From Bacteroidota bacterium (GTDB lineage: Bacteria > Bacteroidota > Bacteroidia > Chitinophagales > BACL12): a stretch of 64,000 nt of DNA. This document shows positions 7,420 through 47,401 of the stretch, piece after piece (the stretch's first letter is position 1; every line of letters begins with the position of its first letter). The notes below the pieces were generated by a model. That model was not told the origin of the DNA. It saw only the letters and a program-made list of their open reading frames with translations, and searched no databases. The stretch is taken from contig JADJJZ010000003.1 in assembly GCA_016706255.1 (NCBI GenBank), positions 417,914 through 481,913 on the forward strand, given 5' to 3'. The position numbers were made by a program, and so were the translations under genes.

Positions 7420-7427
7420 AAATGTGC

Positions 7428-8942: not shown

Positions 8943-8965
8943 TGTATTAACCTGATAATTTTGCG

Positions 8966-9930: not shown

Positions 9931-10011
9931 TTGGTGAAAATAACAAATTTCGTGCGAAACCTAAAACCGATGCATATTATTAAACGAAACTTGGTGGAAA
10001 TTTAGTGCAAC

Positions 10012-20418: not shown

Positions 20419-22848
20419 TTATTTTTTACGAATTCTGTTGAATGTAAAAAAACGTTTCCAAAATGATTTCGGATTAACTGTATCTGAATAATAATCATTG
20501 TATCCGGTATAACCGTAGCCATAACCATATCCATAACCGTAGCCGTAACCATATTCTGTTCCACTGGCATTAGCATCATTTACTACAATACCAATATTGG
20601 TCAAATGATTATCATTATACAAACGATTAACATTTCCGATAAAGTTGCGTTTTGAATAATTTACACGAATCATGTAAATCGCTAAATCTGCTTTTGCCAT
20701 AATAGGAATAGAGTCAGAAACTATACCTACCGGAGGGCTGTCAATTATTACAAAATCGTAAATGGCCAGCAAATCTGCCATTAGTTTATCACATGCCGGT
20801 GATACTAATAACTCGGCCGGATTCGGTGGCACAGGACCTGCAATTAAAATATCGCAACCGGCTTCTTCAAGCGGCTGAATACAATCCTGGAAATTATCTT
20901 TATTAATCAGGATAGTACTAACCCCCTGCTGATTTTTTAATTTAAATGCTTTATGCACTTTTGGTTTCCGTAAATCGAAATCCACCAAAATAACTTTTTT
21001 ACCTGCTGAACTAATTACGTTCGCTAGATTTAATGCCGTAAACGTTTTACCCTCACCACTCACGGTTGAAGTAATTACAATCAATTTGCCTTTGTCATCA
21101 CTTTTAAGGAAATATTGCATATTACTTCGTATTGCTCTAAACGACTCGGCAATATGTGATTTCGGACTTGCAGTTACCACAATTTGTGGGGTGTCCATTT
21201 TCGATTTATTATACATAGGCAATGCACCAAGTAAAGGTACATTTGTTGATTTCTCAACATCAGGAACACCAATAATTGTGCTGTGCAATAGGAAGCGTAA
21301 ATATATATGGGCAAATGATATACCAATACAAATGAGTATCGCTAAACCCCAGATTTTAGCTTTTACCGGTGCTACCAGTGAGCCACGTTCACCTGAATCA
21401 AGAATAATGTAATCACTGCTCATACCCGCAAGCGTAATTTCATATTCCGATTGTTTTTCAAGGAGTAATAAATAATATTTTTCCTTTAAATCATTTAATC
21501 GGGTTAATCGCGCAAATTCAGATTGTTGTTCAGGTAATTTTAAAAATTCACCTTCGTATTTGTTTTTTTCTTCAGTAAGGTAATTATCACGAACCTCAAG
21601 CTTTTTTTCAGCGTTTACAATTGCCTGTTTAAAGTTTTCGGTAACTTTTGAAATTTGTTTGTTGATAGAAGTTAAACGTGGATCTGAAGATGGTACACTG
21701 AGTATGAGCGTTTCTTTTTCTTTGTTTAAATCAACCAGCGAATTGAGGTAAGGCGTAAAATCACTGTATTCTAAATCACCAAAATAATTCGCCAGCGCAT
21801 CAAGGTCACTGTTTTTGTTATTCGTAAAATCTTTAAGCCACTTTAAACTTTTTTGTTCAAGGGTAACCTGAAATTTAGCCTGATCAATCTCATTTAACTT
21901 TTGAACAATATTAGACTCTGCGAGTTCCGGGCTAATTATGAGATTTTCCTTTTTGAAGGTTTTCAACAAATTTTCCTGGTCATACAATTCTTTTTCAAGC
22001 GAATCAATTTGATCTTCAATAAAATTGATTATCATTTCGGCACTTCCGGCTTTTCTTGTTAAACTCATATTCACAATTTCGCCGGCAATCGTATTTACAA
22101 CATCTTTTGTTTTTACAGGATTATTATCCCGATAGTTAATTACAATTTTACCACCATAAAGATTATCTACATCTATCTCTACTTTCCCTTCAATTCGTTC
22201 GGCTTCTCTATTAATGTCATTTATAACAAAATAATAATTTTCATAAAACGACTTTTCTCTTTCTTTTTTCAGGTGGGCAGTAATATTAAATTCAGGAGTG
22301 CTAAATGGTTTTTCAAAATCGAAATTATATTCTATATGTTCTCCGCCTATTTCATATTTTATCACATAATGCGAAGGATCAATTACGTGTAAATCAATTT
22401 TTTTACCAACGATGCTGGAATCCAGCACTTGTACTTTTACGTCAAACGGACTTGCATTATAAACCTCACCCTCCTTTACGCGTTCACGAATAAAATAAGA
22501 TACTTGCAATGGAAGCGATTTCAACGCTTTAATTTTATAACCTTTAGAATTAAGGATGGTCATCTCCTCATTCAAACGGTCAACATTGGTATTGGAAACG
22601 AGTATACCTAAATCAATGGAGTTATCTTTTGATTTATCTTTAAATTGAACATCCGCCTGCGATTCATACAGTGGGCTGGTATATCGCCCTATTAAATAGG
22701 ATGCTACAAATGCTAATATGATATATAAAACTATCCACCAACGCGTTAACCATCCAATCGTTAAAAATAATTTCCAGTTAAACGACTGATCTTCGTTCGC
22801 ATCACTGCTATTTAATATTTCATTTCCATTAGTTGCCATTCCGCACAA
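20419..22848 (-). CDS. wzc: Polysaccharide co-polymerase / BY-kinase (Wzc-like tyrosine autokinase)
   Basis: The N-terminal Wzz-like domain has two TMs and a long coiled coil. The C-terminal kinase has Walker A SGEGKTF, A' VILVDFDLRKP and B FVIIDSPP, plus a Tyr-rich tail. Confidence 0.85.
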   Translation of the reverse strand: MCGMATNGNEILNSSDANEDQSFNWKLFLTIGWLTRWWIVLYIILAFVASYLIGRYTSPLYESQADVQFKDKSKDNSIDLGILVSNTNVDRLNEEMTILNSKGYKIKALKSLPLQVSYFIRERVKEGEVYNASPFDVKVQVLDSSIVGKKIDLHVIDPSHYVIKYEIGGEHIEYNFDFEKPFSTPEFNITAHLKKEREKSFYENYYFVINDINREAERIEGKVEIDVDNLYGGKIVINYRDNNPVKTKDVVNTIAGEIVNMSLTRKAGSAEMIINFIEDQIDSLEKELYDQENLLKTFKKENLIISPELAESNIVQKLNEIDQAKFQVTLEQKSLKWLKDFTNNKNSDLDALANYFGDLEYSDFTPYLNSLVDLNKEKETLILSVPSSDPRLTSINKQISKVTENFKQAIVNAEKKLEVRDNYLTEEKNKYEGEFLKLPEQQSEFARLTRLNDLKEKYYLLLLEKQSEYEITLAGMSSDYIILDSGERGSLVAPVKAKIWGLAILICIGISFAHIYLRFLLHSTIIGVPDVEKSTNVPLLGALPMYNKSKMDTPQIVVTASPKSHIAESFRAIRSNMQYFLKSDDKGKLIVITSTVSGEGKTFTALNLANVISSAGKKVILVDFDLRKPKVHKAFKLKNQQGVSTILINKDNFQDCIQPLEEAGCDILIAGPVPPNPAELLVSPACDKLMADLLAIYDFVIIDSPPVGIVSDSIPIMAKADLAIYMIRVNYSKRNFIGNVNRLYNDNHLTNIGIVVNDANASGTEYGYGYGYGYGYGYGYTGYNDYYSDTVNPKSFWKRFFTFNRIRKK
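20488..20553 (-). repeat. Tyr cluster encoded as (YG)7-Y-T-G-Y-N-D-Y-Y in the Wzc tail
   Basis: Read directly: ata/gta (Tyr, antisense) alternate with acc/gcc/tcc (Gly, antisense) across 20509-20553. There are 11 Tyr in 22 residues. Confidence 0.9.
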
Positions 22849-23637
22849 TTATTTACTAAGATTAACAAAGAAAGCATATATCACAACAATGCTGGAAACT
22901 GTTGTGATAATCGGGGCCAATTCACGAAAAACAGTGGCATTTAATACGGGTTCTATATAAATAATATCATTTGGTTGCACATACGTGCTCGCGGCTTGTA
23001 AGCCTGATATTTCTGAAAGATCAATTATCTGAGTTTGAGGTGCACCATTAATGTTTCTGATAACAGTAATTTTAGCTGCTTTACCATTTTCGGGAACACC
23101 ACCTGCAGCACCAATCGCTTCTATTATTGTCATGTCGGGCCTGTCCAACAAAACTTTACGCGATTCTGAACTCCCGCGATAAACCGTAACAAATTTATTT
23201 ACGACTAATACATTAACATATGGGTCAATGTAATTTTTACTGTAAGCTTCAGTTAATTTTATTTCAGCTTCACGTGTAGTTAGTCCTTGTAATTGTATTA
23301 CTCCGATTATCGGCAAATTAGCTTCACCTTTTGCATCAATCGTGTAACTTAATGAAGTTGTTGACGCCTGCAAGGCAACTTCATTCGATGAAACAATTTG
23401 TGGCTCTATCAATGAATATCCACCCTTTGGAAAAACCAACACATTCAGTACATCACCTTGTGTTATCCTAAAATCAGGGCTTACTGTATCCAAAAAAGTA
23501 GTACCCACATAATTTTTATCTGCCTTAAGCATCCGATTCGGATTAAATACGCTGCAGGCTTGGAAAATTGGTGTTATAAATGCTAAATATAGGATACCCC
23601 TTAAAATAAAGGTCAATTTCTTATCGCTGGTCAACAT
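22849..23637 (-). CDS. wza: Outer-membrane polysaccharide export protein (Wza-like, Poly_export plus SLBB)
   Basis: Lipoprotein-type signal ...IFQACS. GDVLNVLVF and the NxDIIYI-type SLBB motif (QPNDIIYIEP) are present. It sits directly upstream of wzc with 0-nt spacing. Confidence 0.8.
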   Translation of the reverse strand: MLTSDKKLTFILRGILYLAFITPIFQACSVFNPNRMLKADKNYVGTTFLDTVSPDFRITQGDVLNVLVFPKGGYSLIEPQIVSSNEVALQASTTSLSYTIDAKGEANLPIIGVIQLQGLTTREAEIKLTEAYSKNYIDPYVNVLVVNKFVTVYRGSSESRKVLLDRPDMTIIEAIGAAGGVPENGKAAKITVIRNINGAPQTQIIDLSEISGLQAASTYVQPNDIIYIEPVLNATVFRELAPIITTVSSIVVIYAFFVNLSK

Positions 23638-23755: not shown

Positions 23756-25672
23756 CTACCGGCTTTTGTCTAAGGCTTCAAAATCAGAATTTTTACTGAT
23801 AAATTCCGGAATAAATGCCTTTAAGGATGTAACAACCTGAATCGTATCTCCCGAATTCAAGGCTAATTTAAGATTATTTATATGTGTTTGCACCACCTCA
23901 CTCGGGTATTGTGTAGTTATCGCAATTTTAATTTTGTGATGATGTGTAGGTAAGGTATTTTCATTTGTATTGAGCAATTCTTCATGTAATTTTTCGCCCG
24001 GACGTAATCCGGTGAAAATAAACGGAATATCTTTTTCCGGCTCCAGACCGCTCAATAGCACCATTTTTCTTGCCAAATCAATAATTTTTACCGGTTCACC
24101 CATATCAAATAGGTATAATTCGCTGGTTTTACCCATTGTGGCAGCCTCGAGCACTAACTGACAAGCTTCTGCAATGGTCATAAAATATCTGGTTACTTCA
24201 GGGTGCGTTATTGTAAGTGGTCCACCCGCTTCAATTTGTTTACTAAAGTAATTTACTACAGAACCATTACTACCCAATACATTTCCAAACCGTGTAGTAG
24301 TAAATACCGTTTTAATGGATGTATCTTTCGATTTATCCTGAACATAAATTTCGGCAGCCCTTTTTGTTGCACCCATTACATTTGTCGGATTAACTGCCTT
24401 GTCAGTTGATATCATAACAAATTTTTCAACCGCATTTGAAATTGCAAGGTCTACCAGATTTTTTGTCCCGAAAATGTTTACATCAATCGCTTCAATTACA
24501 TTTTGTTCCATTAATGGAACGTGTTTGTAAGCCGCTGCATGAAAAATAATTTGCGGTTTATAATTTGTAATGATTTGTTCTAAACGTTTGTAATTGGTAA
24601 TATCACAAATAACATATACGATACTGCAATTATTGTTATTTAATTTAAAAAACAAATCCATTTTCACATCAAATAAAGCACTCTCTGCCTGGTCTAATAA
24701 AATAAGCTGACCTGGTTGAAACTTTAAGATTTGTTTCACCATTTCACTGCCAATTGAGCCGGCAGCTCCGGAAATTAGAATGGTTTTTCCCGAAAAATTA
24801 TTTTTTAATTTTTCATTTTCAAGCAAAATAGGCTCCCTGCCTAAAAGGTCTTCAATGTTAATATTTTTAATTTGTTGTAAACTCAATTGACCGTTAATCC
24901 AATCGGTAACAGGAGGCACAGACTTAACGCTGATCTGATTTTCAAGGCAATAAGCAACCACTTCATTTTTACGGTTTATTTCTATATCGTTAATGCCAAT
25001 TATCAATTCTTCAATGGCGTATTTACTTAAAAGGGTGCTTAATTTTTTTGAAGAATAAATTTTTATCCCTTCAATTGTCTTATTGATTTTAGACGCATTG
25101 TCATCTAAAAATGCAATAACAGAATAATTGGTATTTGTATCATTTTTTAACGCCTGTAAAACACTTAACCCTCTTCTTCCTGCACCATAAATAACAACAG
25201 GAATAGGGGTTATTTTATGCCTGTTCGCCTGATAAAAAAATACTTTTATACCATATCGGCTGAAAATTAAAAGCGAAATACTTAATGCAGCATGAATAAT
25301 GGCAATAGCAATCGGTAATATTCCAGGTGTAAAATAATATGTTTTACTTAATCCGGAAATAATTATTACTAAAAGTGTGGCAGCTAATCCTGCTTTTATT
25401 AAACGCAGCGCATCTGCAATGCCGGAGTGACGAATTATTCCATCGAATGATTTAAAGGCAATAAAACTAATTCCAAAAAGTGCCGTTGTTAAAAAGGTAT
25501 CACCCAGGTAATCTTTAAATGAAATTGCAGCTACATTAAAATTATATCGCAAAATATAGGCGACTCCATAGGTGAATATGGTAATGATAATATCAAAACC
25601 AAACACTACCCATTTGGATAAAATGCGTGTACCGAATTCACGGTTTATATAATTGTTCCACCTTTCGGTCAT
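23756..25672 (-). CDS. Membrane-anchored UDP-HexNAc 4,6-dehydratase family protein (CapD/PglF/WbpM-like)
   Basis: 638 aa with 4-5 N-terminal TMs followed by an extended SDR domain (ILISGAAGSIGSEM, FHAAAYKHVP). Confidence 0.85.
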   Translation of the reverse strand: MTERWNNYINREFGTRILSKWVVFGFDIIITIFTYGVAYILRYNFNVAAISFKDYLGDTFLTTALFGISFIAFKSFDGIIRHSGIADALRLIKAGLAATLLVIIISGLSKTYYFTPGILPIAIAIIHAALSISLLIFSRYGIKVFFYQANRHKITPIPVVIYGAGRRGLSVLQALKNDTNTNYSVIAFLDDNASKINKTIEGIKIYSSKKLSTLLSKYAIEELIIGINDIEINRKNEVVAYCLENQISVKSVPPVTDWINGQLSLQQIKNINIEDLLGREPILLENEKLKNNFSGKTILISGAAGSIGSEMVKQILKFQPGQLILLDQAESALFDVKMDLFFKLNNNNCSIVYVICDITNYKRLEQIITNYKPQIIFHAAAYKHVPLMEQNVIEAIDVNIFGTKNLVDLAISNAVEKFVMISTDKAVNPTNVMGATKRAAEIYVQDKSKDTSIKTVFTTTRFGNVLGSNGSVVNYFSKQIEAGGPLTITHPEVTRYFMTIAEACQLVLEAATMGKTSELYLFDMGEPVKIIDLARKMVLLSGLEPEKDIPFIFTGLRPGEKLHEELLNTNENTLPTHHHKIKIAITTQYPSEVVQTHINNLKLALNSGDTIQVVTSLKAFIPEFISKNSDFEALDKSR

Positions 25673-25813
25673 AAACTTTGGTTCAACTGACAGTTGTTCA
25701 AGGGGACAGAGTAATGGCTGTTGGTGCTCAGGTTATTGGTTCACGGCCAATAACATGGGCTTTCAATATGCAAATGTAGAATAAAAAAATGAGTGGAGAG
25801 ATGCTGCCTTTTA

Positions 25814-26944
25814 TTAGGCAGTTGCTGTTTCCAGTAAAGTGCAGATTTGATCTAACTGAGATTCTGTTAGTGCAGAGCCCGACGGTAAGCAAAGGCCCTT
25901 ATTAAATAGGGTTTCACTAATACCTGTTATAAAAGCAGGATATGATTTAAAGACAGGCTGCAGATGCAATGGTTTCCATAGCGGACGACTTTCAATATTA
26001 TGCTTTTCGAGTTCTTGCCTGAAATATTCAGGTGAATGCGTAATTTCTTTATTATTAATTTGTAAAGTAGTTAGCCAGCGATTTGAAAAATAATGCGCAG
26101 GTTCATTTAAAAATTCAAAATGACCGGAACCACCTAACCTGTTTTGGTAGTACGAAAAAATATTTCTTCGTGCGGTGATACGTTGTGGCAACACTTCCAT
26201 CTGGCCCCTGCCAATTGCGGCACAAATATTACTCAGCCTGTAATTATAGCCAATTTGCGAATGCTGGTAATGTGGTGCTGCATCTCTTGCTTGTGTAGCC
26301 AAAAATCTTGATTTTTTTATCGCTTCATCATTGTTTGAAATAAGTGCTCCACCACCGGATGTTGTAATTATTTTATTTCCATTAAACGACAAAATTCCGT
26401 AGCTGCCCAAAGTGCCTGTTAATTTATTATTAATTTTTGAGCCTAACGATTCTGCAGCATCTTCAATTACCGGTATTCCATGTGCGTTTGCAATTTGTAA
26501 CAGTTCATCCATTTTTGCAGGCATACCATATAAATGAACAATAATTATTGCTTTTGGTTTTTTATTTTGACGCAAACAAAATTGAATGGCTTCTTCCAAC
26601 TGCTCCGGGTCCATATTCCATGTTTCCGGTTCGCTGTCTACAAAAACAGGTATTGCCTTTTGATAAATTATTGGATTTGCTGATGCTGAAAAGGTGAACG
26701 AGGGACAAATTACATAATCATTCTGTTGAACATTTAATAAAATTAACGCAAGATGTAAAGCTGCCGTGCCTGATGATAATGCCGCACACGATGTAATAGG
26801 TAAATAATTTTGAATTGCTGTTTCAAATGCATCTACATGCGGGCCAAGCGGAGCAATCCAATTGGTATCAAAGGCATTTTGGATATACTCCATTTCTTTA
26901 GCCCCCATATGGGGAGGAGATAAATATATTCTTTGATTTTCCAT
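25814..26944 (-). CDS. DegT/DnrJ/EryC1/StrS family sugar aminotransferase (PglE/WcfR-like)
   Basis: 376 aa with SGTAALHLAL and FNGNKIITTSGGGAL (PLP-Lys context). Confidence 0.85.
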   Translation of the reverse strand: MENQRIYLSPPHMGAKEMEYIQNAFDTNWIAPLGPHVDAFETAIQNYLPITSCAALSSGTAALHLALILLNVQQNDYVICPSFTFSASANPIIYQKAIPVFVDSEPETWNMDPEQLEEAIQFCLRQNKKPKAIIIVHLYGMPAKMDELLQIANAHGIPVIEDAAESLGSKINNKLTGTLGSYGILSFNGNKIITTSGGGALISNNDEAIKKSRFLATQARDAAPHYQHSQIGYNYRLSNICAAIGRGQMEVLPQRITARRNIFSYYQNRLGGSGHFEFLNEPAHYFSNRWLTTLQINNKEITHSPEYFRQELEKHNIESRPLWKPLHLQPVFKSYPAFITGISETLFNKGLCLPSGSALTESQLDQICTLLETATA

Positions 26945-26962
26945 CTGCTGTTTTTTGTATGC

Positions 26963-27580
26963 TTAAATATTTTTATGATTACGCCGCACAATATCAAGAT
27001 CTGCTAATTGTGAACGAGGGTCAGAAACTACACCACTTCGCCGCAAAACATATTTAACGGTTTTAATTACAATTTGTACATCTGTTTTTAAACGGATGTT
27101 TTTTACATAGGTAATATCGTATTGTAAGCGTGTATCCCAGTCAATAGTGTTTCTCCCGTTTACCTGTGCAAGTCCGGTAATTCCGGGTTTTACTAAATGC
27201 CGTTGATGCTCAGTTGTTGTATAATATGGCAGGTATTTAATTAATAATGGCCTCGGACCAATCCAACTCATTTGCCCGAATAAAATATTAAATAGTTGAG
27301 GTAATTCATCCAGTGACGTGCTGCGTAAAAATGTGCCAGCTTTGGTAATACGATGTTTATCACTTGCATAATTATTTTCTTTTTCAGGCAACATCGTAAT
27401 AAATTTATATATGGTAAAAATGCGCTCGTTTTTGCCAACTCGTTTTTGCACGAAAATAATATGACCCTTAAAATTGATAAAACAAAATAGACTAATAACC
27501 AGCATTAATGGAGAAAGTATAATAACTGCCATTAATGCAAATACAAAATCCAATAGCGGCTTTATGATATTACGATACAT
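26963..27580 (-). CDS. Small undecaprenyl-phosphate sugar-1-phosphate transferase (PglC/WcfS-like initiating enzyme)
   Basis: MYRNIIKPLLDFVFAL...SPL TM helix. KFITM, DELPQLFNIL, SWIGPRP and PGITGLAQV motifs are present. The internal ATG at 27580 is preferred over the maximal start at 27622. Confidence 0.85.
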   Translation of the reverse strand: MYRNIIKPLLDFVFALMAVIILSPLMLVISLFCFINFKGHIIFVQKRVGKNERIFTIYKFITMLPEKENNYASDKHRITKAGTFLRSTSLDELPQLFNILFGQMSWIGPRPLLIKYLPYYTTTEHQRHLVKPGITGLAQVNGRNTIDWDTRLQYDITYVKNIRLKTDVQIVIKTVKYVLRRSGVVSDPRSQLADLDIVRRNHKNI

Positions 27581-28856
27581 TTCTACTTGTAGTATAATCT
27601 GGTGTAATTTGTTTTTTGCCAAGATGTAATTTAATAGCCTGAAGGTAATTTAAAGCCAAAACATTTCTGTCAAAATGTACTTTTGCATAACGATAGCCAT
27701 TTTCGCCCTGACTAATTATTAATTCCTTGTTCAACAAATATTTTTCAATTACCTGAGCCAGATGGTGTGGGTTTTCCGGTTCAACAAAAGTGCCGGCATT
27801 TGCAGTTTCAACCAGTGCTCGGGAAACTCCGTCAATGGCTAATACTACCGGTTTTTTGCAAGCCATATAATCAAATGTTTTATTGGAATATACTGTTTTA
27901 AAAGTTTCCGCTTTTTTTAACACTGATAATCCCAAATCACAAGCCAGTATATATTTTAATGCAGCTTCTTTAGTTACAGAATCTATAAAAATTACATTTG
28001 TTAAACCCTTTTGTTTAGCTTTTGCAATTAGCTCCTGTTTTTGCATGCCATCACCAATTAACAAAAACACAACATCCCGGTGCTTTAATAAATCAGCCGC
28101 TTCGAGCACTTGTGTTAAATGATTAGCCACGCCATGTGCACCTACATAACAAAGTGCAAGAGTTTGTTCATTTATACCAATTGATTTTCGATATGCCTTT
28201 ATGTCGAAATTTGCTAATAAATTATCGCTGATATCAAAATCAGCAGCATTTGGGAAATAGATAATTTTTGATTCAGGTATGCCTTTTTTATCAATTAATG
28301 TATCACGCATAGCCGGTGTTAGCACATTAATTAAGGTAGATTTTTTGTATAAAGATTTTTCAAGCCGATAGGCCATTTTAATGGCTGATTTATTTTTAAG
28401 CACCCCCGTATCAATAGCCGACTCCGGCCAAAGGTCTCTGATTTCAAAAATAAATGGTATACGCTTAAATAAACTTAATACCCGTGCTATAATACCCACT
28501 GTTAAAGGTGGTGAGCTCACAATAATACAATCATATTTTTCACGTGCTTTAATTAACCCGCCATAAATACCGGAAAAAACAAATGCAAAATAAGCATTGA
28601 GGCGACCTCTGAAATGATTATTATATGATTTTGAAACATGTGTTCGAATCACCTTAATGCCAGGCGCAAATTGTTCAACATGTACATATTTATTATCATA
28701 CTTAGGATTGCGAATACCTTTTGTGTAATGGGTCATTCCTGCAATTACTGTTACCGTATTGCCTTCTGCAACCCAAATTTTACTCATAGCATTCCATCTC
28801 AAACCACCCGGGTCATCGGTCTCCTGAAAATATTGATGAATGAGTAATATGTGCAT
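27570..28856 (-). CDS. GT4 glycosyltransferase, WbuB-like
   Basis: MHILLIHQYFQ...DPGGLRWN N-terminus is typical of WbuB-type GT4 enzymes, with a C-terminal GT-B E-x7-E region. Confidence 0.7.
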   Translation of the reverse strand: MHILLIHQYFQETDDPGGLRWNAMSKIWVAEGNTVTVIAGMTHYTKGIRNPKYDNKYVHVEQFAPGIKVIRTHVSKSYNNHFRGRLNAYFAFVFSGIYGGLIKAREKYDCIIVSSPPLTVGIIARVLSLFKRIPFIFEIRDLWPESAIDTGVLKNKSAIKMAYRLEKSLYKKSTLINVLTPAMRDTLIDKKGIPESKIIYFPNAADFDISDNLLANFDIKAYRKSIGINEQTLALCYVGAHGVANHLTQVLEAADLLKHRDVVFLLIGDGMQKQELIAKAKQKGLTNVIFIDSVTKEAALKYILACDLGLSVLKKAETFKTVYSNKTFDYMACKKPVVLAIDGVSRALVETANAGTFVEPENPHHLAQVIEKYLLNKELIISQGENGYRYAKVHFDRNVLALNYLQAIKLHLGKKQITPDYTTSRNVS

Positions 28857-28860
28857 GCTG

Positions 28861-30741
28861 TTAAAGGGCTCTGATATGTGTGGTTATTTTATTTGTATGT
28901 GTACTAAAAATGTATTGTTCACATTTTATTTTTTCTGCGTAGCTGCCTGAATAAAACCCTGTTTCAATTTGACGCTCAATATTAATTCCTTGTTCATCAA
29001 CAGCACTAATTACAAAGTTGGTGTCAAAACTAATATCTGGGTGCCATATTTGTTGAACTGGCTTTTTTTCAGAGTTATCAATTATATCTATTATTGTCCA
29101 ATCCGGCCGGCCTTTTATTTTAGTAACCGTTCTTTCATGTGTAATCCATTTTCCGGATTGCCGGAATGCTTTTATTTTCCCGTTAAACGTATAACTGTTT
29201 TCATCCTCAGTTGTGGTAGCATGAATTACTTTGGACCAGAAATACCAAATAAATCTGGGGCCTTTTAACATCTGATCCAATTGATTATATGTTACGGTAT
29301 TGTGCGACTGTGTTCCAAAAAAATATAGGATATCCGATTTATCTGTGTTATATCTAAAGCTGCCACCATCTCTCATTATATTAATATCACCATTCCAAAT
29401 ATCAATATGTAACTGGTCGGCTTGGGATGGTCTGTTTTTAAATGCACAACAGGTAATATAGGTAAATTGTTCTTTTTCTCTAAAAGTATAATACCCGCTG
29501 TCGCTATAATTGCGAACCCCTTTTAATGGTGCATAATTTGTCTGAAACCCGGAAGTTTGATTTTGAAACCATAAAGTGTCTTCAAAAACAGTATTTTCTA
29601 AATACTCAATTCCTAAACTATTTGCCAGGCACTGTAACTGAGGTCTGAAGTCATTAAACAGATTATCATTTAACGGAAAAAATAAGGAACCATCGTTAGC
29701 TCCGTAGTTGGGTAATTTTCCCGTTTTTTCATTCGTGCATTGAATTAAAAATTGTAAGGATGATGTTAATCTTGTAATTAATTTTTCACTAAGCGATATC
29801 GAATTTAATTTTGCTATTTTCAAAATCCATGTGTACACCTGTATTATTACCCGATGGTAATTCATAGAATATTGCAAATAGGTGCCATCGTTGAAAATTT
29901 GGTAAACGCCTTCACGCTCTAAAATCGATAAGGCATATTTTTGCCAGTGTTGCGCTTCCTTCAACTGCGGAAATAAAACACTGTAAACAAATAATGCCGC
30001 AGCTTCTGTTATCACGTGGTTATTGCGAACGAACTTTTCTGCATAATGGAAATTACAATAAATAAGTTGTAATTGTTCGTAAACTGAACACATTATTTTT
30101 TGCCAAACGGCTTCATCAAATTGTTCATCTTGTTGATAGAAGTGTAAAGCAAATAGCCAATTTAAAACACGAATGGCTATTTCCTGGCCCGAAATATAAT
30201 GTGGGCCGAAATTGATTGGATTAGCATCAATAAACGAGGTAATTTCACTAATTACAAATGAAGTTGAATTACTTGAATAATGATGGTCATACCGAATAAT
30301 GTCAAAGAGGTAACAAAAACGAGCTCTTTCCCAAATGTTTTTAATGTCTTCACCTTCAGAGAAATCGTCGAAATCAAGATAATGTTTATCTGCCGTATAT
30401 TTTTTGCCTGTAAAAGGATCGGTATGCCAATCGCGAATGTTTGGAATTGGCAAATATTGTGTGTTGAAAAATGGATAAGCGCCACCAAATATTTTGTTGG
30501 CTTTGGTTTCTAAAACAGGGTTTTGTTTTTTGGGGATAACTATTTGTTCTTGTGGTGGGATAAAAAATTTACAAGTACTATTTTCCCACTCAGATTTTGA
30601 TACCGGAAATATTTTAACAGGTTCAACACTGTGTTTGTTTCTATAAATAACTGATTTACTCCAAATAGAATAAACACCTCTGTTTAATAGATACCTGAAA
30701 CCGGCTTGCTGAAAATATGAAATATATTTATTTATGGCCAA
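28861..30741 (-). CDS. Heparinase II/III-fold (alginate-lyase-superfamily) protein with no signal peptide
   Basis: RNNHVITEAAALFVYSVLFP (the NH...E...AL toroid motif) and QADQLHIDIWNGD...RDGGSFRY (the H-x-H/D beta-sandwich motif) are present. The N-terminus MAINKYISYFQQAGFRY is not hydrophobic. Confidence 0.65.
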   Translation of the reverse strand: MAINKYISYFQQAGFRYLLNRGVYSIWSKSVIYRNKHSVEPVKIFPVSKSEWENSTCKFFIPPQEQIVIPKKQNPVLETKANKIFGGAYPFFNTQYLPIPNIRDWHTDPFTGKKYTADKHYLDFDDFSEGEDIKNIWERARFCYLFDIIRYDHHYSSNSTSFVISEITSFIDANPINFGPHYISGQEIAIRVLNWLFALHFYQQDEQFDEAVWQKIMCSVYEQLQLIYCNFHYAEKFVRNNHVITEAAALFVYSVLFPQLKEAQHWQKYALSILEREGVYQIFNDGTYLQYSMNYHRVIIQVYTWILKIAKLNSISLSEKLITRLTSSLQFLIQCTNEKTGKLPNYGANDGSLFFPLNDNLFNDFRPQLQCLANSLGIEYLENTVFEDTLWFQNQTSGFQTNYAPLKGVRNYSDSGYYTFREKEQFTYITCCAFKNRPSQADQLHIDIWNGDINIMRDGGSFRYNTDKSDILYFFGTQSHNTVTYNQLDQMLKGPRFIWYFWSKVIHATTTEDENSYTFNGKIKAFRQSGKWITHERTVTKIKGRPDWTIIDIIDNSEKKPVQQIWHPDISFDTNFVISAVDEQGINIERQIETGFYSGSYAEKIKCEQYIFSTHTNKITTHIRAL

Positions 30742-32658
30742 TTAATTCTGTCTGCTATCGTTAGTATAAAATTGCTCCATCCAGCTTTGAATCGCCATCA
30801 TTGTTAATATGGTATAGGAGCCATCCACTCGACCCTTTTTATTATCAGCAATTAATTGCTGCACTGCAGGGTAATTAAATATTTGGAATTTGTTTAACGC
30901 TGATTCCGACAAACGCTCTTCCAACATTTCCGCTAAATCATGATTTATCCATTTACGCACAGGAGCGCCGAAGCCTGTTTTGGAACGGTTTACGATATTT
31001 GATGGTAGATGTTTGCCTGCTATTTTTCTTAATACATGTTTTGTTTCTAAATTCCTGAGTTTAAGATTCGGAGGAAGTTTAGTGCTCATTTTTACCAAAT
31101 CCAAGTCTAAAAAGGGAACACGCACTTCTACACCGGCTGCCATTCCCATTTTGTCCGTATAATTTAAATTATGGTCAACTAAAAAAGATTTTAAATCCAA
31201 ATACAACATTTTATTTAATAAACTTTCCTCATCCGGTATCTGTTCCAGTGCGAGATATAAATATTCTTCCGGGTTGTAATTAATAACCTGTGACTGGATA
31301 TCAGGATGGAACAATTGTAAATTATCACAAATCGGAAACCATTCAAAATAACCAATCAAACGCGATATTGAACTATCCTTATTTCTTTTAATGAATTTAT
31401 TTAATCTTCGAATGGTAGGTTTATTTACATCTTTTAACTGTAAATATTTTGTAGCACCATGAAAAATGAACGATGGAACATTTTTAATTAGATTATCCAT
31501 TTTAATCGCCTGGTGGCGGCGGTACCCCGAAAATACATCATCGCCACCTGCTCCACTAATTAAAACTTTTATTCCCATGTTTCTGGCAGCCTCACAAACT
31601 TTGTAAACATATAATGGCGCAAAATCTGCTTGCGGCTCATCAAGATGCCAGATCATTTTGTCAAATTCCTGAACAATACTAATACTGCCATCTACATGGT
31701 GTAATTGAACACCTAACTTTTCCGCTGCTTGTTTGGCGTAATAAAAGTCAGCTTTAAATCCTTCACTTTCTTCGTCATTGCCGCTCTGTATGGTAAAACA
31801 ATTAATGGTAGTATTTGGTGCGCTGCGTTTTGCTTCGGCAACTAACACGGATGAATCGATACCGCCTGATAAGAAAAATCCTACCGGTACATCACTTAAT
31901 AACTGCGACTGAACTGCATTTTGAATTTTATTTTCTACAGTATCAATCCACATTTCATCTGTATAAAATTCTCGTGAACCATCAAATGGTATTTCGAAAA
32001 ACTTCTTTTTTACATAAGTGGAACTATCTTGTGTATTAATAGTAAAACATTCTCCCGGTAATAATTTGCTCACATACAAAAATGGTGTCACTTCACCCGG
32101 CGACCATAAGAAATTCATATAATTTACCAGTGCCCGATAATTTATCGTTTTATCGAACCCATCCAGATATATTAATGATTTTAATTCTGAACCAAAGGCA
32201 AAAGCGGCCCCTTTTTTATAAATATAAAATGGTTTAACACCCATTTGGTCCCTTGCTGCAAACAAATTATGCGATACTTTATCATAAATAGCAAAAGCAA
32301 AAATGCCATTTAACATGTTCAGTATTTTTTCACCAAACTGTATATAGCCTAATAATACGGTTTCTGTATCCGACTGACTGGCAAAAGTTACACCGTAAAG
32401 TGCTAATTTATTTCTGATGTCAAAATGATTATAAATTTCACCGTTAAAAATAATAACATACCGACCGCTTGAATCATACATTGGTTGGTCGCCATGTGCA
32501 CTGAGGTCTTGTATTTTTAAACGATGGGTGCCTAAAATGACTGAATCATCTTCATAAATGCCACTTTTATCCGGACCGCGATGTTTAATTACATCAAATG
32601 CGGCAGCAAACGAATTTTTTGTATTACTATTTTTAATTAATCCTAAAATGCCGCACAT
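30742..32658 (-). CDS. Glutamine-hydrolysing asparagine synthase family amidotransferase (AsnB/WbpS-like)
   Basis: MCGILG is an Ntn nucleophile N-terminus. SGGIDSS is the PP-loop. Length 638 aa. Confidence 0.9.
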   Translation of the reverse strand: MCGILGLIKNSNTKNSFAAAFDVIKHRGPDKSGIYEDDSVILGTHRLKIQDLSAHGDQPMYDSSGRYVIIFNGEIYNHFDIRNKLALYGVTFASQSDTETVLLGYIQFGEKILNMLNGIFAFAIYDKVSHNLFAARDQMGVKPFYIYKKGAAFAFGSELKSLIYLDGFDKTINYRALVNYMNFLWSPGEVTPFLYVSKLLPGECFTINTQDSSTYVKKKFFEIPFDGSREFYTDEMWIDTVENKIQNAVQSQLLSDVPVGFFLSGGIDSSVLVAEAKRSAPNTTINCFTIQSGNDEESEGFKADFYYAKQAAEKLGVQLHHVDGSISIVQEFDKMIWHLDEPQADFAPLYVYKVCEAARNMGIKVLISGAGGDDVFSGYRRHQAIKMDNLIKNVPSFIFHGATKYLQLKDVNKPTIRRLNKFIKRNKDSSISRLIGYFEWFPICDNLQLFHPDIQSQVINYNPEEYLYLALEQIPDEESLLNKMLYLDLKSFLVDHNLNYTDKMGMAAGVEVRVPFLDLDLVKMSTKLPPNLKLRNLETKHVLRKIAGKHLPSNIVNRSKTGFGAPVRKWINHDLAEMLEERLSESALNKFQIFNYPAVQQLIADNKKGRVDGSYTILTMMAIQSWMEQFYTNDSRQN

Positions 32659-32664
32659 AAAATA

Positions 32665-34770
32665 TCAATCAATTTCGATAACCTTTTTTGTAGCAATACT
32701 TTCTTCAGCAGCAAATGTTGCCAAAGTAGTATTTTTTAATGATTCGAAGCTGGTATATGGAGACTTCCCATTTTCTAAAATATCAATTACCGCTGCAAAC
32801 TGTGCGTCATGACCCTTGTCCTGACTGTGCAGCGGATTTTTAAATGTGGTTACTCCAAAAGTTTTCAGGGATTTAAAATTGTCAATTACAATTACCTTAT
32901 TGCCGACAAAGATTTCAATTTTTTCTTTGGGATATTGCTTGCTGCCATTGGCCAGGTAATTTATAGTTCCATGGCTGCCATTTTTATATGTTAAATGAAT
33001 TATTGTATTTTCAAGATGATTAGAAACAGGTGCATCAGTTGCATAAACAGTATTAATTAAACTACCGGTAAAATAACTCATCAGATCAAAGAAATGACAA
33101 GCTTCACCTATTAGTCGGCCACCTCCGGTTTTTTTATTATATAACCAATGGTCATCTGGTAATTTACCTGCATTAATTGTAATTATAATATTCGCCAACA
33201 TGTTATCTCCAACCAATGATTTTGCCTTAACTGCAAGGGGTGCATGACGCCTGTTAAATCCGGCAAATAAGGCCGTTTCTGTTGTATAGTGAGCTGTTAT
33301 TTGCTCAAGCTGTTCTAAATTTAATGCTAAAGGTTTTTCTACAAATACATGCTTACCGGCAGCTAAAAACTGTGCTGTTAGTTCGGCATGTGTATCGTGG
33401 CGTGTTGCTATTATTACAAAATTAACATCTGGGTCGTTTAAAATAATTTGATTATCTGTAATAGCCTGATGAATGCTGTGTTTTTTTGCAATATCGGTAA
33501 CATCTAAACCATCATTGCCGCTAATGTATTTAATATAAACACCGGTTTTCGATAAAGCAGGCAATAAGGTTATTTTACTAAAATTACCTGCTCCAATAAT
33601 TGCTGCAATCGTTTTGCCTTTTGATTTTATATTTTGTGTAACCGTAATACGTTGTGTCGGGTGATTTGAGCCGGAATATGTTATTATCGCAGCAATCGTA
33701 TGCGCATCTGATATTTTATCGTAAAGTGTTATTACATTTTCAAATGCTGTTTTTTGCGTAATTAATGGCGTTACTGCAATTTGTTTTGTTGCAAGCGCCT
33801 TTAGTACAGTCTCGAAATTCCGTTTAGCGGTCCATTTAACATAGGCCTCCGGATAATCTATGCCCTGCTGTTCATATTGCTCATCATAACGTCCCGGTCC
33901 GTATGAGCACGAAACCTGAAATAGTATTTCTTTTTTATAAAACTCGCTACGCTCAAGGTTTAGGTCAATAACTCCAATTAAAATTATGTGCCCGCGTTTT
34001 TTGGTAGCCCTTGCAGCAATATTAATCAGGTTATCGTTTTTTGCGGATGCTGCTATAAAAATCACATCGAATCCAAGCCCATTGTTTTGACTTTCACTTA
34101 TGCTTTCAATAGATGTAGTATTGGTATTATAAGCTTCAATTTGTAATGATTTTGCGATTTGTATTTTTTCAGGTGCAATATCAAAAGCTACAACATGACA
34201 GCCCGATGCTTTTAGTAGCTGACAGGTGATTAATCCGATTAACCCTAAACCAATTACAGCAACAGTATCGCCTATTTGAGGTTTTGCTAATCTGATTGCT
34301 TCCAACGCAATGGAGCCTACAACTGTAAATGCAGCTTCCTCATCTGAAACATTTTCAGGAATTAATGCAACAAGATTTTTTGGCACACAAACAAACTCAG
34401 CATGAGTGCCATTACTTGCCACGCGATCACCAATTTTAAATTCTTTTATATCATCTGCTATTGCAACTACTTCACCTACATTACAATAACCAAGTGGCAG
34501 CGGTTCATCCAATCGCCGGAAAACTGCATCCAGAGTTGGTAATAAACCATCTGTTTTAATTTTATCTAGAACCTGCGCAACACGGTCGGGATTTTGTCGC
34601 GCTTTCGTTATTAAATTTGCTTTACTGAATTCAACCAACATTTTTTCCGTGCCCGTAGATACCAAACTTGTGGTAGTGCGAATTAACACATGTCCGGGTT
34701 TTAGCGCCGGAGAAGGTACATCTTCCAAAATTGTTTTACCGGATTGGAGATGTTGAATCAGTTGTTTCAT
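32665..34770 (-). CDS. Bi-domain oxidoreductase: N-terminal MDR (zinc-ADH-like) fused to a C-terminal Gfo/Idh/MocA domain
   Basis: The first ~350 aa have an MDR Rossmann (VAVIGLGLIGL). The second half has IIGAGNFS...EKPLA, the Gfo/Idh/MocA signature. Confidence 0.75.
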   Translation of the reverse strand: MKQLIQHLQSGKTILEDVPSPALKPGHVLIRTTTSLVSTGTEKMLVEFSKANLITKARQNPDRVAQVLDKIKTDGLLPTLDAVFRRLDEPLPLGYCNVGEVVAIADDIKEFKIGDRVASNGTHAEFVCVPKNLVALIPENVSDEEAAFTVVGSIALEAIRLAKPQIGDTVAVIGLGLIGLITCQLLKASGCHVVAFDIAPEKIQIAKSLQIEAYNTNTTSIESISESQNNGLGFDVIFIAASAKNDNLINIAARATKKRGHIILIGVIDLNLERSEFYKKEILFQVSCSYGPGRYDEQYEQQGIDYPEAYVKWTAKRNFETVLKALATKQIAVTPLITQKTAFENVITLYDKISDAHTIAAIITYSGSNHPTQRITVTQNIKSKGKTIAAIIGAGNFSKITLLPALSKTGVYIKYISGNDGLDVTDIAKKHSIHQAITDNQIILNDPDVNFVIIATRHDTHAELTAQFLAAGKHVFVEKPLALNLEQLEQITAHYTTETALFAGFNRRHAPLAVKAKSLVGDNMLANIIITINAGKLPDDHWLYNKKTGGGRLIGEACHFFDLMSYFTGSLINTVYATDAPVSNHLENTIIHLTYKNGSHGTINYLANGSKQYPKEKIEIFVGNKVIVIDNFKSLKTFGVTTFKNPLHSQDKGHDAQFAAVIDILENGKSPYTSFESLKNTTLATFAAEESIATKKVIEID

Positions 34771-35915
34771 TTAGGTTGTAATTTTTTAATGGCATTTGCA
34801 TTTTTAAGAAGCCATTTTGTAATTCTTTCTGCAGCTTTGCCGTCACCATACGGATTTGTTTTTTTCGACATTTTCGAATAAACACTTTTTGAAGAAAGCA
34901 ATAAGTTGATTTGTTGCACAATTTTATTGATATCTGTCCCTACCAATTTAACCGTGCCCGATTTTATTGCTTCCGGACGTTCAGTTACATCACGCATTAC
35001 TAAAACAGGTTTACCTAAAGATGGTCCCTCTTCCTGTATGCCTCCTGAATCGGTTAATATAAGATAAGCTTCTTTCATTAAATAAATAAAATCAGGGTAG
35101 GAGAGTGGGTCAGTTAAAATGATATTTGGTGTGGCACCAAGTTCTGTTTCAATTGGCGTTTTTATATTGGGGTTTAGATGTACAGGATATATAATTATTG
35201 CATTAGGATTTGTTTTAGCAACTTTTAATAAAGCCTTACAAATATTTGCAAAACCTTTTCCAAAATTTTCTCGGCGATGACCCGTAACTAAAATAATTTT
35301 TTTACCGGAGCCAACAGCCAGTTTTAATCCTAAATCATTTACCTGATTAGAAAATCCAGTCACCTTTTTAGCAGTGTGCAATAAGCTGTCAATTACGGTA
35401 TTTCCCGTTTTTACAATTTTTGTTTTTGCAACGCCCGACTTCACGAGGTTAGTTGTGTTAAGCGTTGTTGGCGCAAAATGAACAGAAGCAATTTGTGAGG
35501 TTAACACCCGATTTGCCTCCTCAGGAAAAGGAAAATTTAAATTCCATGTGCGCATACCTGCTTCAACATGTCCCACTGGAATCCTTCGATAAAATGCGGC
35601 AAGGGCAGCGGCAAAAGAAGTATTGGTATCACCATGCACCAATACAATGTCCGGATTGGCTTGAGTGAAAACAACATCTAAACCGGATATGATTTTAGCA
35701 GTAATAGCATTTAGTGATTGATCGTGCTGCATGATGTTTAAGTCAAAATCAGGGACTATATCAAAAAAGGATAATACCTGATCCAACATACTGCGATGTT
35801 GTGCAGTAACACATACTAAACAATTACTGTTTTTCTGTTTTTTTAGATTTAAAACTACCGGTGCCATTTTAATTGCTTCCGGCCTTGTTCCAATTATTAC
35901 TAAAGTAGTTAACAT
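34767..35915 (-). CDS. wecB: UDP-N-acetylglucosamine 2-epimerase (WecB family; non-hydrolysing versus hydrolysing not resolvable by eye)
   Basis: VIIGTRPEAIKMAPV, HVEAGMRT and TDSGGIQEE motifs. Confidence 0.85.
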   Translation of the reverse strand: MLTTLVIIGTRPEAIKMAPVVLNLKKQKNSNCLVCVTAQHRSMLDQVLSFFDIVPDFDLNIMQHDQSLNAITAKIISGLDVVFTQANPDIVLVHGDTNTSFAAALAAFYRRIPVGHVEAGMRTWNLNFPFPEEANRVLTSQIASVHFAPTTLNTTNLVKSGVAKTKIVKTGNTVIDSLLHTAKKVTGFSNQVNDLGLKLAVGSGKKIILVTGHRRENFGKGFANICKALLKVAKTNPNAIIIYPVHLNPNIKTPIETELGATPNIILTDPLSYPDFIYLMKEAYLILTDSGGIQEEGPSLGKPVLVMRDVTERPEAIKSGTVKLVGTDINKIVQQINLLLSSKSVYSKMSKKTNPYGDGKAAERITKWLLKNANAIKKLQPK

Positions 35916-46429: not shown

Positions 46430-47401
46430 TTATTGTGGATAGGGAGCATTAAATAAATTGTAGTAATAATTTATGGTTGCACATTCATCAGTATTGGTGA
46501 TATTCTCCCAATATTTAATGTAACGTTTTGAATTGCGTTTGTAACTATGTCGTGTTATTGGACGTTGATCGTTTGATGTAATTGATTCAAGGTGCGATTG
46601 AGTGACATAATTTTTAGAAAATTGCAATTCTTGAGAAAGTGCAGCCACTTCTTGTGGTGGATTACTCATCAATGTTTCAAAATGAACAATTTTGTAATTC
46701 TTACGATTTGCAGATTGCACATTTAAAAAGTAATGCAGCAAAGCAGTTTGCAGTGCCATCCTTTCTAAAGGCGACATCTGTGCAATTTTGTTTATAGTGA
46801 TATTGTCGCGATGAATATCATATCGTTTAAAATAAGGATGGGTATAAATGATATTAAGTCGCTGAATAGGGTCCCATTTTAATTTATTTAAACTGGTAAC
46901 TATACTCAATGGATTTCGCATCAGGATAATTCCCAAATGATCCCCGAGCAACGGTGCTGCATCTTCCAGGCAAAACGACAAACCCGGATCCTTAATGATT
47001 ATTCTGCGTTTTCTTAATGGTAACGATTTGTGTAACGCCAGCTTCGTAAGGTATGGATACCAACGTCCACTTTTTCTGTAATGTGACCAGTTTTTAACCG
47101 CTACTATTTCTTTATATATTGAACTGATTTGTGCTGAATTAAAAGGCTGATTGCTGTTTATTTTTGCAAGTTCAGAATTCCAAAGTATTGTATTTCTTAA
47201 AAACGGTTCGTGATATAAAAATACTTTGTTGGAATTGAATATTTCTTCAACTGTGGTAGTTGCAGATCGTGGTGCTCCCGTAATAATAACCGGTAAACCA
47301 TTTTCTACCGGGCTGACAGACTTAAATGCATAATCGATTAAATCATCCAATACACACGTTAAGCGTTGTGGTATTTTGTCTATTCTTACCATGCTGTCCA
47401 C
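46430..47401 (-). CDS. Sulfotransferase-fold protein (putative PAPS-dependent)
   Basis: VIITGAPRSATTT is 5'-PSB-like and ILMRNPLSIVTS is 3'-PB-like. It is embedded between the SDR and HAD genes. Confidence 0.45.
   Translation of the reverse strand: MDSMVRIDKIPQRLTCVLDDLIDYAFKSVSPVENGLPVIITGAPRSATTTVEEIFNSNKVFLYHEPFLRNTILWNSELAKINSNQPFNSAQISSIYKEIVAVKNWSHYRKSGRWYPYLTKLALHKSLPLRKRRIIIKDPGLSFCLEDAAPLLGDHLGIILMRNPLSIVTSLNKLKWDPIQRLNIIYTHPYFKRYDIHRDNITINKIAQMSPLERMALQTALLHYFLNVQSANRKNYKIVHFETLMSNPPQEVAALSQELQFSKNYVTQSHLESITSNDQRPITRHSYKRNSKRYIKYWENITNTDECATINYYYNLFNAPYPQ

Follow-up and report, generated by a model that had tools for sequence, protein, structure and literature searches.

A heparinase-fold protein in a cross-phylum surface polysaccharide cassette of Bacteroidota as a putative cytoplasmic uronate C5-epimerase

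A polysaccharide locus with a heparinase-fold gene

The window analyzed here is a stretch of 64,000 nucleotides from the genome of a Bacteroidota bacterium (assembly GCA_016706255.1, contig JADJJZ010000003.1, positions 417,914 to 481,913 of the forward strand), and coordinates given without a further label refer to it. Our subject is a protein of the heparinase II/III fold, termed HEP, together with the genes that accompany it. HEP (28861-30741, minus strand) comprises 626 amino acids (aa), starts at a TTG codon and carries the Pfam domains PF16889 and PF07940. It resembles GnlB/WeeF and is described here as a putative cytoplasmic uronate C5-epimerase. No other PF07940 gene occurs in the 5.1-Mb genome.

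All genes surrounding HEP described in this section are likewise encoded on the minus strand. Directly upstream lies the accessory module AsnB, an AsnB-type glutamine-dependent amidotransferase (30742-32658, 638 aa) with GATase_7 and Asn_synthase domains. It is preceded by the bi-domain oxidoreductase BiOR (32665-34770, 701 aa), which joins an N-terminal half of the medium-chain dehydrogenase/reductase (MDR) type to a C-terminal GFO/IDH/MocA half (Pfam ADH_zinc_N and GFO_IDH_MocA), and by a WecB-type non-hydrolysing UDP-N-acetylglucosamine (UDP-GlcNAc) 2-epimerase (34767-35915, 382 aa), which scores 480 bits against TIGR00236 (cut-off 210) and matches Epimerase_2 with an E-value of 4e-115. Downstream of HEP follow a WcaI/WbuB-like glycosyltransferase of family GT4 (27570-28856, 428 aa; Pfam Glycos_transf_1 and Glyco_trans_4_4, NF007640) and the predicted priming enzyme, a PglC-type phosphoglycosyl transferase or Bac_transf (26963-27622, 219 aa; PF02397, E 5e-59). 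Two genes assigned to a first sugar of the bacillosamine type complete the block, namely a DegT/PglE-type sugar aminotransferase (25814-26944, 376 aa; PF01041, E 5e-94) and a PglF/CapD-type membrane UDP-GlcNAc 4,6-dehydratase (23756-25672, 638 aa; PF02719, E 6e-116).

An earlier reading of the letters alone (the sequence-only reading) had reported a 626-aa heparinase-like frame abutting an AsnB-type gene with a 0-nt gap and a 701-aa two-domain oxidoreductase, and all three open reading frames were found as described. The WecB and BiOR genes overlap by 4 nt, BiOR and AsnB are separated by 6 nt, AsnB and HEP by 0 nt, and HEP and GT4 by 4 nt. From this spacing we infer that the genes are co-transcribed. 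A scan for sigma-70 promoters and terminators returned only matches that were below background or located within genes, the consensus being uninformative for a Bacteroidota-like genome. The cluster as a whole is a long minus-strand run of capsule or O-antigen polysaccharide genes, bounded by Wzc/Wza (20419-23637) on one side and, near 50 kb, by a NeuB/cytidylyltransferase cassette on the other. HEP shares this cluster with Wza, Wzc and Wzy genes.

Conservation of the gene neighbourhood

An alignment-based scan found relatives of HEP in 499 species genomes. Eighty loci were fetched and, together with one metagenomic locus, 81 loci were analyzed. Neighbouring genes were counted by tblastn with the window proteins; the denominators differ from gene to gene, 55 being the number of loci with enough upstream sequence for AsnB. 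In 68 of 70 loci HEP is followed, at a distance of no more than 300 nt, by the WcaI/WbuB-like GT4 gene. Upstream of HEP, BiOR is found within 6.5 kb in 48 of 57 loci and an Epimerase_2 protein passing the WecB equivalog cut-off in 46 of 57. A PglC-type Bac_transf gene follows within 4.5 kb downstream in 42 of 61 loci, usually with DegT and a PglF-like dehydratase behind it. An orthologous AsnB, with at least 40% identity, is present in 8 of 55. The conserved unit would thus be made up of BiOR, WecB, HEP, GT4 and the bacillosamine-type priming genes, with AsnB as an accessory. The sequence-only reading had taken BiOR, AsnB and HEP as a unit, a grouping that does not hold against these counts for AsnB and GT4.

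In every HEP locus examined the context is biosynthetic. This is a large family, which at E <= 1e-30 numbers 3,320 representatives of clusters formed at 50% identity, and at the same time it is scattered: HEP was detected in 16 of the 401 sampled Bacteroidota genomes, distributed over 14 genera. Such a patchy spread is the pattern expected of serotype genes.

Six proteobacterial loci, from Ralstonia, Pseudomonas mosselii, Marinobacterium, Thiothrix, Rhodoferax and a second Pseudomonas (sp.), share the gene order BiOR-HEP-GT4-Bac_transf-(PglD)-DegT-PglF. The DegT gene is kept downstream of the cassette in Bacteroidota and Proteobacteria alike. The PglF-type dehydratase of the window is 36% identical to its P. 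mosselii counterpart and occupies the same position in Ralstonia, Thiothrix, Rhodoferax and Marinobacterium, while the window Bac_transf shares 40% identity with the Ralstonia and the P. mosselii proteins.

One side observation concerns the first sugar. Between 23756 and 27622 the window holds no acetyltransferase among the PglF-like, DegT and PglC-like genes, whereas the Ralstonia, Pseudomonas, Marinobacterium, Thiothrix and Rhodoferax blocks carry a PglD-type gene at that spot. Judged by this gap, the 4-amino group of the first sugar may be free or otherwise acylated.

Relation to the Ralstonia eps operon and to gnlA/gnlB

A HEP homologue is present in all 132 Ralstonia megaplasmid records of PLSDB. 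In Ralstonia solanacearum CP144383.1 it belongs to the eps operon for exopolysaccharide (EPS) I, which reads wzb, wzc, wecB, wecC, epsE, epsF, GT4, acyltransferase, a 713-aa 'putative dehydrogenase', the heparinase II/III-family protein, GT4, sugar transferase, acetyltransferase, DegT and PglF-like (putative dehydrogenase to sugar transferase: RSgd_p1021 to p1018). From BiOR through HEP, GT4, Bac_transf, the acetyltransferase where present and DegT to the PglF-like gene, this operon is collinear with the window. Identity to Ralstonia amounts to 43% over 709 aa for BiOR, compared with the 'putative dehydrogenase' (44% to the P. mosselii protein), to 30% (E 1e-56) for HEP, to 30% (E 1e-57) for GT4 and to 53% for WecB, compared with EpsC/WecB; the value for Bac_transf is given above. 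The two loci differ in that Ralstonia has a wecB-wecC pair and no AsnB, whereas the window has wecB, lacks wecC and carries AsnB between BiOR and HEP.

The EPS of P. solanacearum GMI1000 is among the glycans that contain an alpha-L-GalNAcA-(1->3)-beta-D-Bac motif (PMC11200240), where GalNAcA denotes N-acetylgalactosaminuronic acid and Bac bacillosamine. L-GalNAcA and related L-hexosaminuronic acids are known from Pseudomonas aeruginosa, Ralstonia, Vibrio and Acinetobacter, where they form part of O-antigens, capsules and exopolysaccharides (PMC11200240). The conserved block can be mapped one-to-one onto this disaccharide, with the cassette, GT4, PglC, PglE and PglF each having a predicted part in it.

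In Acinetobacter, WeeE and WeeF (gnlA/gnlB) have been postulated to make UDP-L-GalNAcA (PMC9676051). The gnlA/gnlB genes of A. baumannii K loci correspond to weeE/weeF of the wee cluster for emulsan in A. venetianus RAG-1, and according to a 2026 preprint GnlB is structurally related to heparinase, which matches the fold of HEP. Descriptions of gnlA/gnlB do not mention AsnB. When the Ralstonia HEP was used as query in a homologue search, many Proteobacteria but no Acinetobacter appeared among the best 120 matches.

Fold, active site and location of HEP

Both Pfam domains of HEP are recognized with confidence (Hepar_II_III_N, E 2e-19; Hepar_II_III_C, E 3e-16), and a profile search of the PDB returned PL12 heparinase III enzymes alone, with E-values from 1e-21 to 4e-14. 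An AlphaFold2 model (pLDDT 89.6, pTM 0.91) was searched with Foldseek, which gave PL12 as the top match (E 6e-20), then PL15, PL33, PL17, exo-heparinase and heparinase II, and also listed human dermatan sulfate epimerase 1 (DS-epi1). In VIA-align comparisons PL12 reached a Z-score of 25 (4mmh/4fnv, about 510 residues) and the other lyases, including PL15, PL17 and PL21, scores of 20-23. DS-epi1 (6hzn_A) was aligned over 501 residues with Z 20.1 and a root-mean-square deviation of 4.3 Å. At the level of the model, the (alpha/alpha) toroid and beta-sandwich fold is confirmed, and with it the heparinase fold that had been read from motifs.

An alignment of 30 HEP homologues (39-52% identity) contains about 90 invariant residues. 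Among them are N240-N241-H242...E246, N294-Y295-(H296)-R297, G347-x-N349-D350-G351, R437-P438, H445-x-D447 and H480-N481, which include the toroid motif NH..E..AL and the H-x-D motif of the beta-sandwich already pointed out by the sequence-only reading. The active-site residues N241, H242 and Y295 are retained even where identity drops to 28-30%, in the proteins of Ralstonia and P. mosselii. Their aligned counterparts in Pedobacter HepIII are N240, H241 and Y294, in numbers taken from the printed hidden Markov model (HMM) alignment. We take N240 and H241 of HepIII to be the carboxylate-neutralising Asn and His, Y294 to be the catalytic Tyr and His424 to be the third catalytic residue. In the same HMM alignment the His424 column is occupied by Pro438, invariant in the HEP family, and the nearest invariant histidine, H445, lies seven residues further on. 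The expectation that catalytic residues would be preserved was therefore borne out for N241, H242 and Y295 but not for the position aligned with His424.

The PL12 enzymes (Pedobacter HepC, 4mmh; Bacteroides BT4657, 5jmd/5jmf; 4fnv) are the best match to HEP in sequence as well as in structure, sharing the toroid and beta-sandwich and the aligned Asn-His and Tyr motifs. HEP differs from them in its low identity (14-17%), in having no signal peptide, in its biosynthetic context instead of a polysaccharide utilization locus and in Pro438. Distinct from PL12 are also the family invariants R437, H445, D447 and the GANDG motif. Human DS-epi1, which acts on polymer chains in the Golgi lumen, has a lyase-type fold in common with HEP; the 11% identity between the two implies no orthology. 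It offers a precedent for a lyase-type fold that epimerises uronate C5 without cleavage, as the heparan sulfate C5-epimerase GLCE does by analogy. Of the His/Tyr/His set of the DS-epi1 type, the toroid-domain His and the Tyr are conserved in HEP, with H445 as a candidate for the second His.

No signal-peptide-like hydrophobic core was detected in the N-termini of HEP and 29 homologues by a crude hydropathy test, the 15-residue Kyte-Doolittle mean reaching 1.13 at most, in agreement with the hydrophobic N-terminus previously noted as missing. These N-termini form basic, amphipathic helices that are part of the fold, and no membrane anchor was found in HEP.

These data bear on the possibility that HEP is a genuine lyase or trimming enzyme, which would cleave the uronate-containing product or stalled intermediates for quality or chain-length control, like AlgL in alginate operons. 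All of its closest solved relatives are lyases, the Asn/His pair and the Tyr are kept, and degradative enzymes are known from EPS operons. Such housekeeping lyases are periplasmic, however, whereas none of the 30 aligned proteins has a signal peptide, and an invariant proline stands where PL12 has its third catalytic His. Moreover, the gene is coupled to a sugar-modifying oxidoreductase and a glycosyltransferase rather than to export genes, and the cassette tracks a sugar with an inverted C5. We consider a lyase or trimming role very unlikely. The sequence-only reading had left epimerase and trimming enzyme as alternatives; the direction toward a uronate-modifying enzyme is supported, but nothing was found that favours trimming. 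Equally, HEP might be a non-catalytic scaffold or substrate-binding partner of GT4, for which the near-universal adjacency of the two genes would speak. Against this idea, which we consider extremely improbable, stand the roughly 90 residues that stay invariant, the lyase-type active-site motifs among them, across phyla and at 28-52% identity. HEP is most likely a biosynthetic member of the cassette and not a degrading enzyme.

BiOR and WecB

Both Rossmann motifs of BiOR are invariant in 58 homologues, as are E478-K479-P480, H559 and D562 of its GFO domain. The latter gives weak matches to UDP-GlcNAc 3-dehydrogenase and inositol 2-dehydrogenase. In the MDR half, G-Y95-C96 stands at the place of the GHE motif of zinc-dependent alcohol dehydrogenases (zinc-ADH). 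Closer inspection of this half shows an invariant S-x-G-T-E at residues 38-42, the position of the zinc-ADH Cys ligand, G-Y-C at residues 94-96 and a conserved Y290-G-x-G-R-Y...Y-E...D-Y-P stretch. Probably this half is an MDR that works without zinc.

BiOR was also considered as the 6-dehydrogenase that the window cluster lacks. This assignment was rejected: Ralstonia carries both WecC and the 43%-identical BiOR.

AsnB is a recurrent but optional module

AsnB matches TIGR01536 with 423 bits, GATase_7 with E 8e-39 and Asn_synthase with E 2e-80. Its N-terminus, MCGILG, provides the Cys2 nucleophile, and both the class II glutamine amidotransferase (GATase) and the Asn_synthase (PP-loop) domains are intact. 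A protein with these features is expected to catalyze glutamine-dependent amidation of a carboxylate, and since the only carboxylate of the cassette is the uronate C6, a uronamide, L-GalNAcAN, is the predicted product. AsnB thus probably turns the sugar acid into its amide. It resembles WbpS (P. aeruginosa O6), WbqG (E. coli O121) and WbtH (Francisella) in being a class II glutamine amidotransferase with Cys2 and an Asn_synthase domain, encoded beside uronate-pathway genes. These three are AsnB-family uronate amidotransferases of O-antigen clusters that act in D-GalNAcA pathways. Unlike them, the window AsnB is wedged into the BiOR-HEP cassette.

In a FastTree phylogeny of 83 HEP proteins, the window protein falls into a clade of 10 members with a Shimodaira-Hasegawa-like support of 99. 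Seven of them have AsnB between BiOR and HEP. In an eighth (L010) AsnB lies directly upstream of HEP and the contig ends before BiOR, L009 shows the collinear order without AsnB, and the contig end truncates L012. Three other HEP clades contain AsnB orthologues of 45-48% identity upstream of BiOR, either adjacent to it (L017) or about 1.8-1.9 kb away (L037 and L074). The BiOR-HEP-GT4 run of P. mosselii and that of Marinobacterium are both immediately preceded by AsnB, and the P. mosselii AsnB is 41% identical to that of the window and likewise starts with MCGILG. Taken together, AsnB orthologues with 40-77% identity neighbour BiOR in at least four Bacteroidota HEP clades, where they take up two alternative positions, and also in P. 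mosselii and Marinobacterium. The cassette loci of Ralstonia, Thiothrix, Rhodoferax and the second Pseudomonas have no AsnB.

The three closest AsnB relatives in the phylum sample (45-47% identity) show how far the linkage extends. In genome G311 the order is AsnB, BiOR, Epimerase_2, HEP, GT4 and Bac_transf. Genome G305 (locus L088, G305:C6, 4681-9859, minus strand) encodes an AsnB of 45% identity, and immediately downstream of it come a 581-aa protein of the heparinase II/III fold and then a GT4a-like gene (31% identity). The 581-aa protein scores 141 bits for PF07940. Over 151 aa of the active-site region it shares 25% identity with HEP, and both the GNH and the MYH motif are preserved. This locus has no BiOR, and a GT9 heptosyltransferase gene is located upstream. 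The 581-aa protein represents a different heparinase-fold subfamily and the locus a second arrangement of AsnB, lyase-fold protein and GT4. The third relative, in genome G207, is paired with BiOR alone and is taken up below. On comparative grounds, AsnB is best described as a recurrent, optional module that accompanies BiOR and heparinase-fold genes across phyla. A view of AsnB as an enzyme specific to this cassette was rejected, given relatives of 45-47% identity that go with BiOR alone (G207) or with the other heparinase-fold subfamily (G305).

A proposed route to an activated L-hexosaminuronic acid

We favour, with moderate confidence, a reading in which the region from 23756 to 35915 is one copy of a cross-phylum cassette for the cytoplasmic synthesis of an activated N-acetyl-L-hexosaminuronic acid, most probably UDP-L-GalNAcA, and for the transfer of this sugar to a lipid-linked one of the bacillosamine type. 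In this pathway an unlinked dehydrogenase would oxidise UDP-GlcNAc at C6, and WecB would invert C2. BiOR would invert C3 through a 3-keto intermediate, one domain oxidising the C3 hydroxyl to a ketone and the other reducing it from the opposite face. HEP would then invert C5: the Asn/His pair would hold the carboxylate while the Tyr abstracts and returns the C5 proton. Because the 4-hydroxyl is free and there is no good leaving group, epimerisation by reprotonation from the other face is expected instead of beta-elimination. In the clade of the window, AsnB, inserted between BiOR and HEP, would convert the C6 carboxyl to a carboxamide and thereby yield L-GalNAcAN. Finally, GT4 would form an L-GalNAcA(N)-(1->3)-Bac-type disaccharide on the PglC-primed lipid.

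L-GalNAcA and N-acetyl-D-glucosaminuronic acid (D-GlcNAcA) differ at exactly C2, C3 and C5. These three stereocentres match the three non-transferase enzymes of the core cassette, WecB, BiOR and HEP. To our knowledge, no enzyme of L-GalNAcA or L-hexosaminuronic acid biosynthesis has been demonstrated.

The stage at which HEP acts can be pictured differently. With the same cassette and the same product, GT4 could add a D-configured N-acetylhexosamine uronate to undecaprenyl-diphosphate-linked bacillosamine (Und-PP-Bac), and HEP could then epimerise C5 of the lipid-linked terminal residue at the cytoplasmic face, where AsnB may act as well. Animal GLCE, the DS-epimerases and alginate AlgG work at the polymer level, and all lyase-fold or lyase-like uronate epimerases that we know of act on chains and none on nucleotide sugars. 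HEP shares its fold with DS-epi1, the cleft of this fold is built for oligosaccharides, and the HEP and GT4 genes, adjacent in nearly all loci (68/70), often overlap. On the other hand, the protein has no membrane anchor, the literature names the gnlA/gnlB pair as nucleotide-sugar enzymes, if only as a postulate, and the sequence does not separate a nucleotide-level from a lipid-level reaction. Action after transfer seems to us rather unlikely.

Several points weigh against the proposed route from UDP-GlcNAc to UDP-L-GalNAcA. Its product and the order of its steps are ones that we infer. With Pro438 in the column of His424, the active site of HEP is not simply that of a plain lyase or of DS-epi1. 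In the 2026 preprint mentioned above, the heparinase fold of GnlB is taken as 'suggesting a different functional role', and the cassette is likened here to Acinetobacter GnlA/GnlB by description only. The MDR half of BiOR is devoid of the canonical zinc-ADH ligand motif and may follow another chemistry. In genome G207 (L087, 8078-12102), AsnB (46% identity) and BiOR (45%) form a pair with a 4-nt overlap at the end of an operon rich in glycosyltransferase genes, with no HEP beside them, and the sole PF07940 gene of that genome is 2.6 Mb away; BiOR and AsnB may hence work without a lyase-fold protein. In addition, the window cluster contains no gene of the UDPG_MGDP_dh (UDP-sugar 6-dehydrogenase) family, and such a gene was found within 10 kb in only 2 of the 81 loci. 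The two dehydrogenases of this kind in the genome are located elsewhere, one TviB-like (447 bits, below the cut-off) and one of the UDP-glucose type, and neither is a WecC equivalog. With no linked 6-dehydrogenase and no WecC equivalog, the cluster does not itself account for the uronate. Lastly, with no more than 30% identity between HEP and its Ralstonia counterpart, another stereoisomer could be the product in Bacteroidota.

The TviB-like enzyme, a UDP-HexNAc 6-dehydrogenase (429 aa) and the only one of its type in the genome, is encoded on another contig beside the dTDP-glucose 4,6-dehydratase RmlB (L004, G000:C29:920994-924260). It is the best candidate to supply uronate to the window cluster.

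Another alternative is that the Bacteroidota cassette makes a sugar other than that of Ralstonia and Acinetobacter. N-acetyl-L-gulosaminuronic acid (L-GulNAcA, the C5 epimer of N-acetylmannosaminuronic acid, ManNAcA), N-acetyl-L-altrosaminuronic acid (L-AltNAcA) or, with BiOR supplying the C6 oxidation, a non-uronate N-acetyl-L-hexosamine (L-HexNAc) would come into question. HEP and GT4 share only about 30% identity with their proteobacterial counterparts, 79 of 81 loci have no linked 6-dehydrogenase while the genome has no WecC equivalog, the MDR half of BiOR could serve a different chemistry, and in the nomenclature paper for A. baumannii gnlB alone is assigned to L-GalNAc, not to the acid. 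Yet BiOR keeps 43-44% identity along its whole length across phyla, its occurrence together with WecC in Ralstonia makes it an unlikely 6-dehydrogenase, the order of eight genes is conserved across phyla, and AsnB requires a carboxylate. We regard a different product as quite unlikely.

The proposal that HEP acts in a cytoplasmic, biosynthetic route to L-GalNAcA agrees with the sequence-only reading, which had favoured a uronate-modifying enzyme over a degradative lyase. That preference is supported by the absence of a signal peptide, the consistently biosynthetic context, the conserved Asn/His and Tyr, the fold shared with DS-epi1, the collinearity with Ralstonia EPS I and the gnlA/gnlB naming. 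Its suggestion that the block makes an epimerised and/or amidated hexuronic acid fits the comparative evidence and is likewise supported, as a proposal.

Other features of the window and of related loci

Between 45948 and 52288, in the upstream part of the cluster, the window holds a sulfotransferase-like gene (46430-47401), a short-chain dehydrogenase/reductase gene and a second, stand-alone GFO/IDH/MocA oxidoreductase (48200-49168), together with a CMP-sugar cytidylyltransferase, a NeuB-family synthase and a DAHP-synthase-family (KdsA-like) gene. This gene set looks like an ulosonic-acid cassette inside the same locus.

In the locus of Flavipsychrobacter stenotrophus (L080), the gene for an 873-aa multi-PAS histidine kinase (7362-9983) is inserted between the Epimerase_2 gene and HEP. 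Gaps of about 2.5 kb at the same spot in related Chitinophagaceae loci (e.g., L030, L033 and L044) suggest the same insert. On the HEP tree, the proteins of two metagenome-assembled genomes labelled 'Bordetella parapertussis' (L051) and 'Arcobacter sp.' (L029) nest within Chitinophagaceae/Bacteroidota clades, which probably reflects mis-binned contigs rather than transfer.

Discussion

The core of the cassette has already been recognized in the literature under the names gnlA and gnlB, and the present locus appears to be a variant of it that bears AsnB. A literature search for a heparinase paired with asparagine synthase, O-antigen or capsule found nothing. New in this analysis would be the synteny statistics, the finding that AsnB is accessory and yet recurrently linked across phyla, the arrangement in G305, the absent linked 6-dehydrogenase and the proline at the PL12 His424 column.

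A broader reading, which we hold only tentatively, extends the proposal to the whole family. HEP proteins would then form a large class of cytoplasmic uronate C5-epimerases that reuse lyase machinery on nucleotide-activated or lipid-linked monosaccharides, with BiOR as a fused C3-epimerase partner and AsnB as a dedicated partner that fixes the L-uronamide. The repeated adjacency of AsnB to BiOR and to the G305 subfamily would in that case follow from a general logic of lyase-fold epimerase, amidotransferase and GT4 shared across phyla.

If HEP is an epimerase, a polysaccharide-lyase fold would have been recruited for biosynthesis in bacteria, as it has been in animals with DS-epimerase. In that case, to annotate genes of capsule loci as 'heparinase' or 'alginate lyase' would mislead systematically. 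The optional AsnB, in turn, would be a genetic marker that predicts whether the sugar is present as the acid or as the amide, which would be relevant to serotype prediction from sequence.

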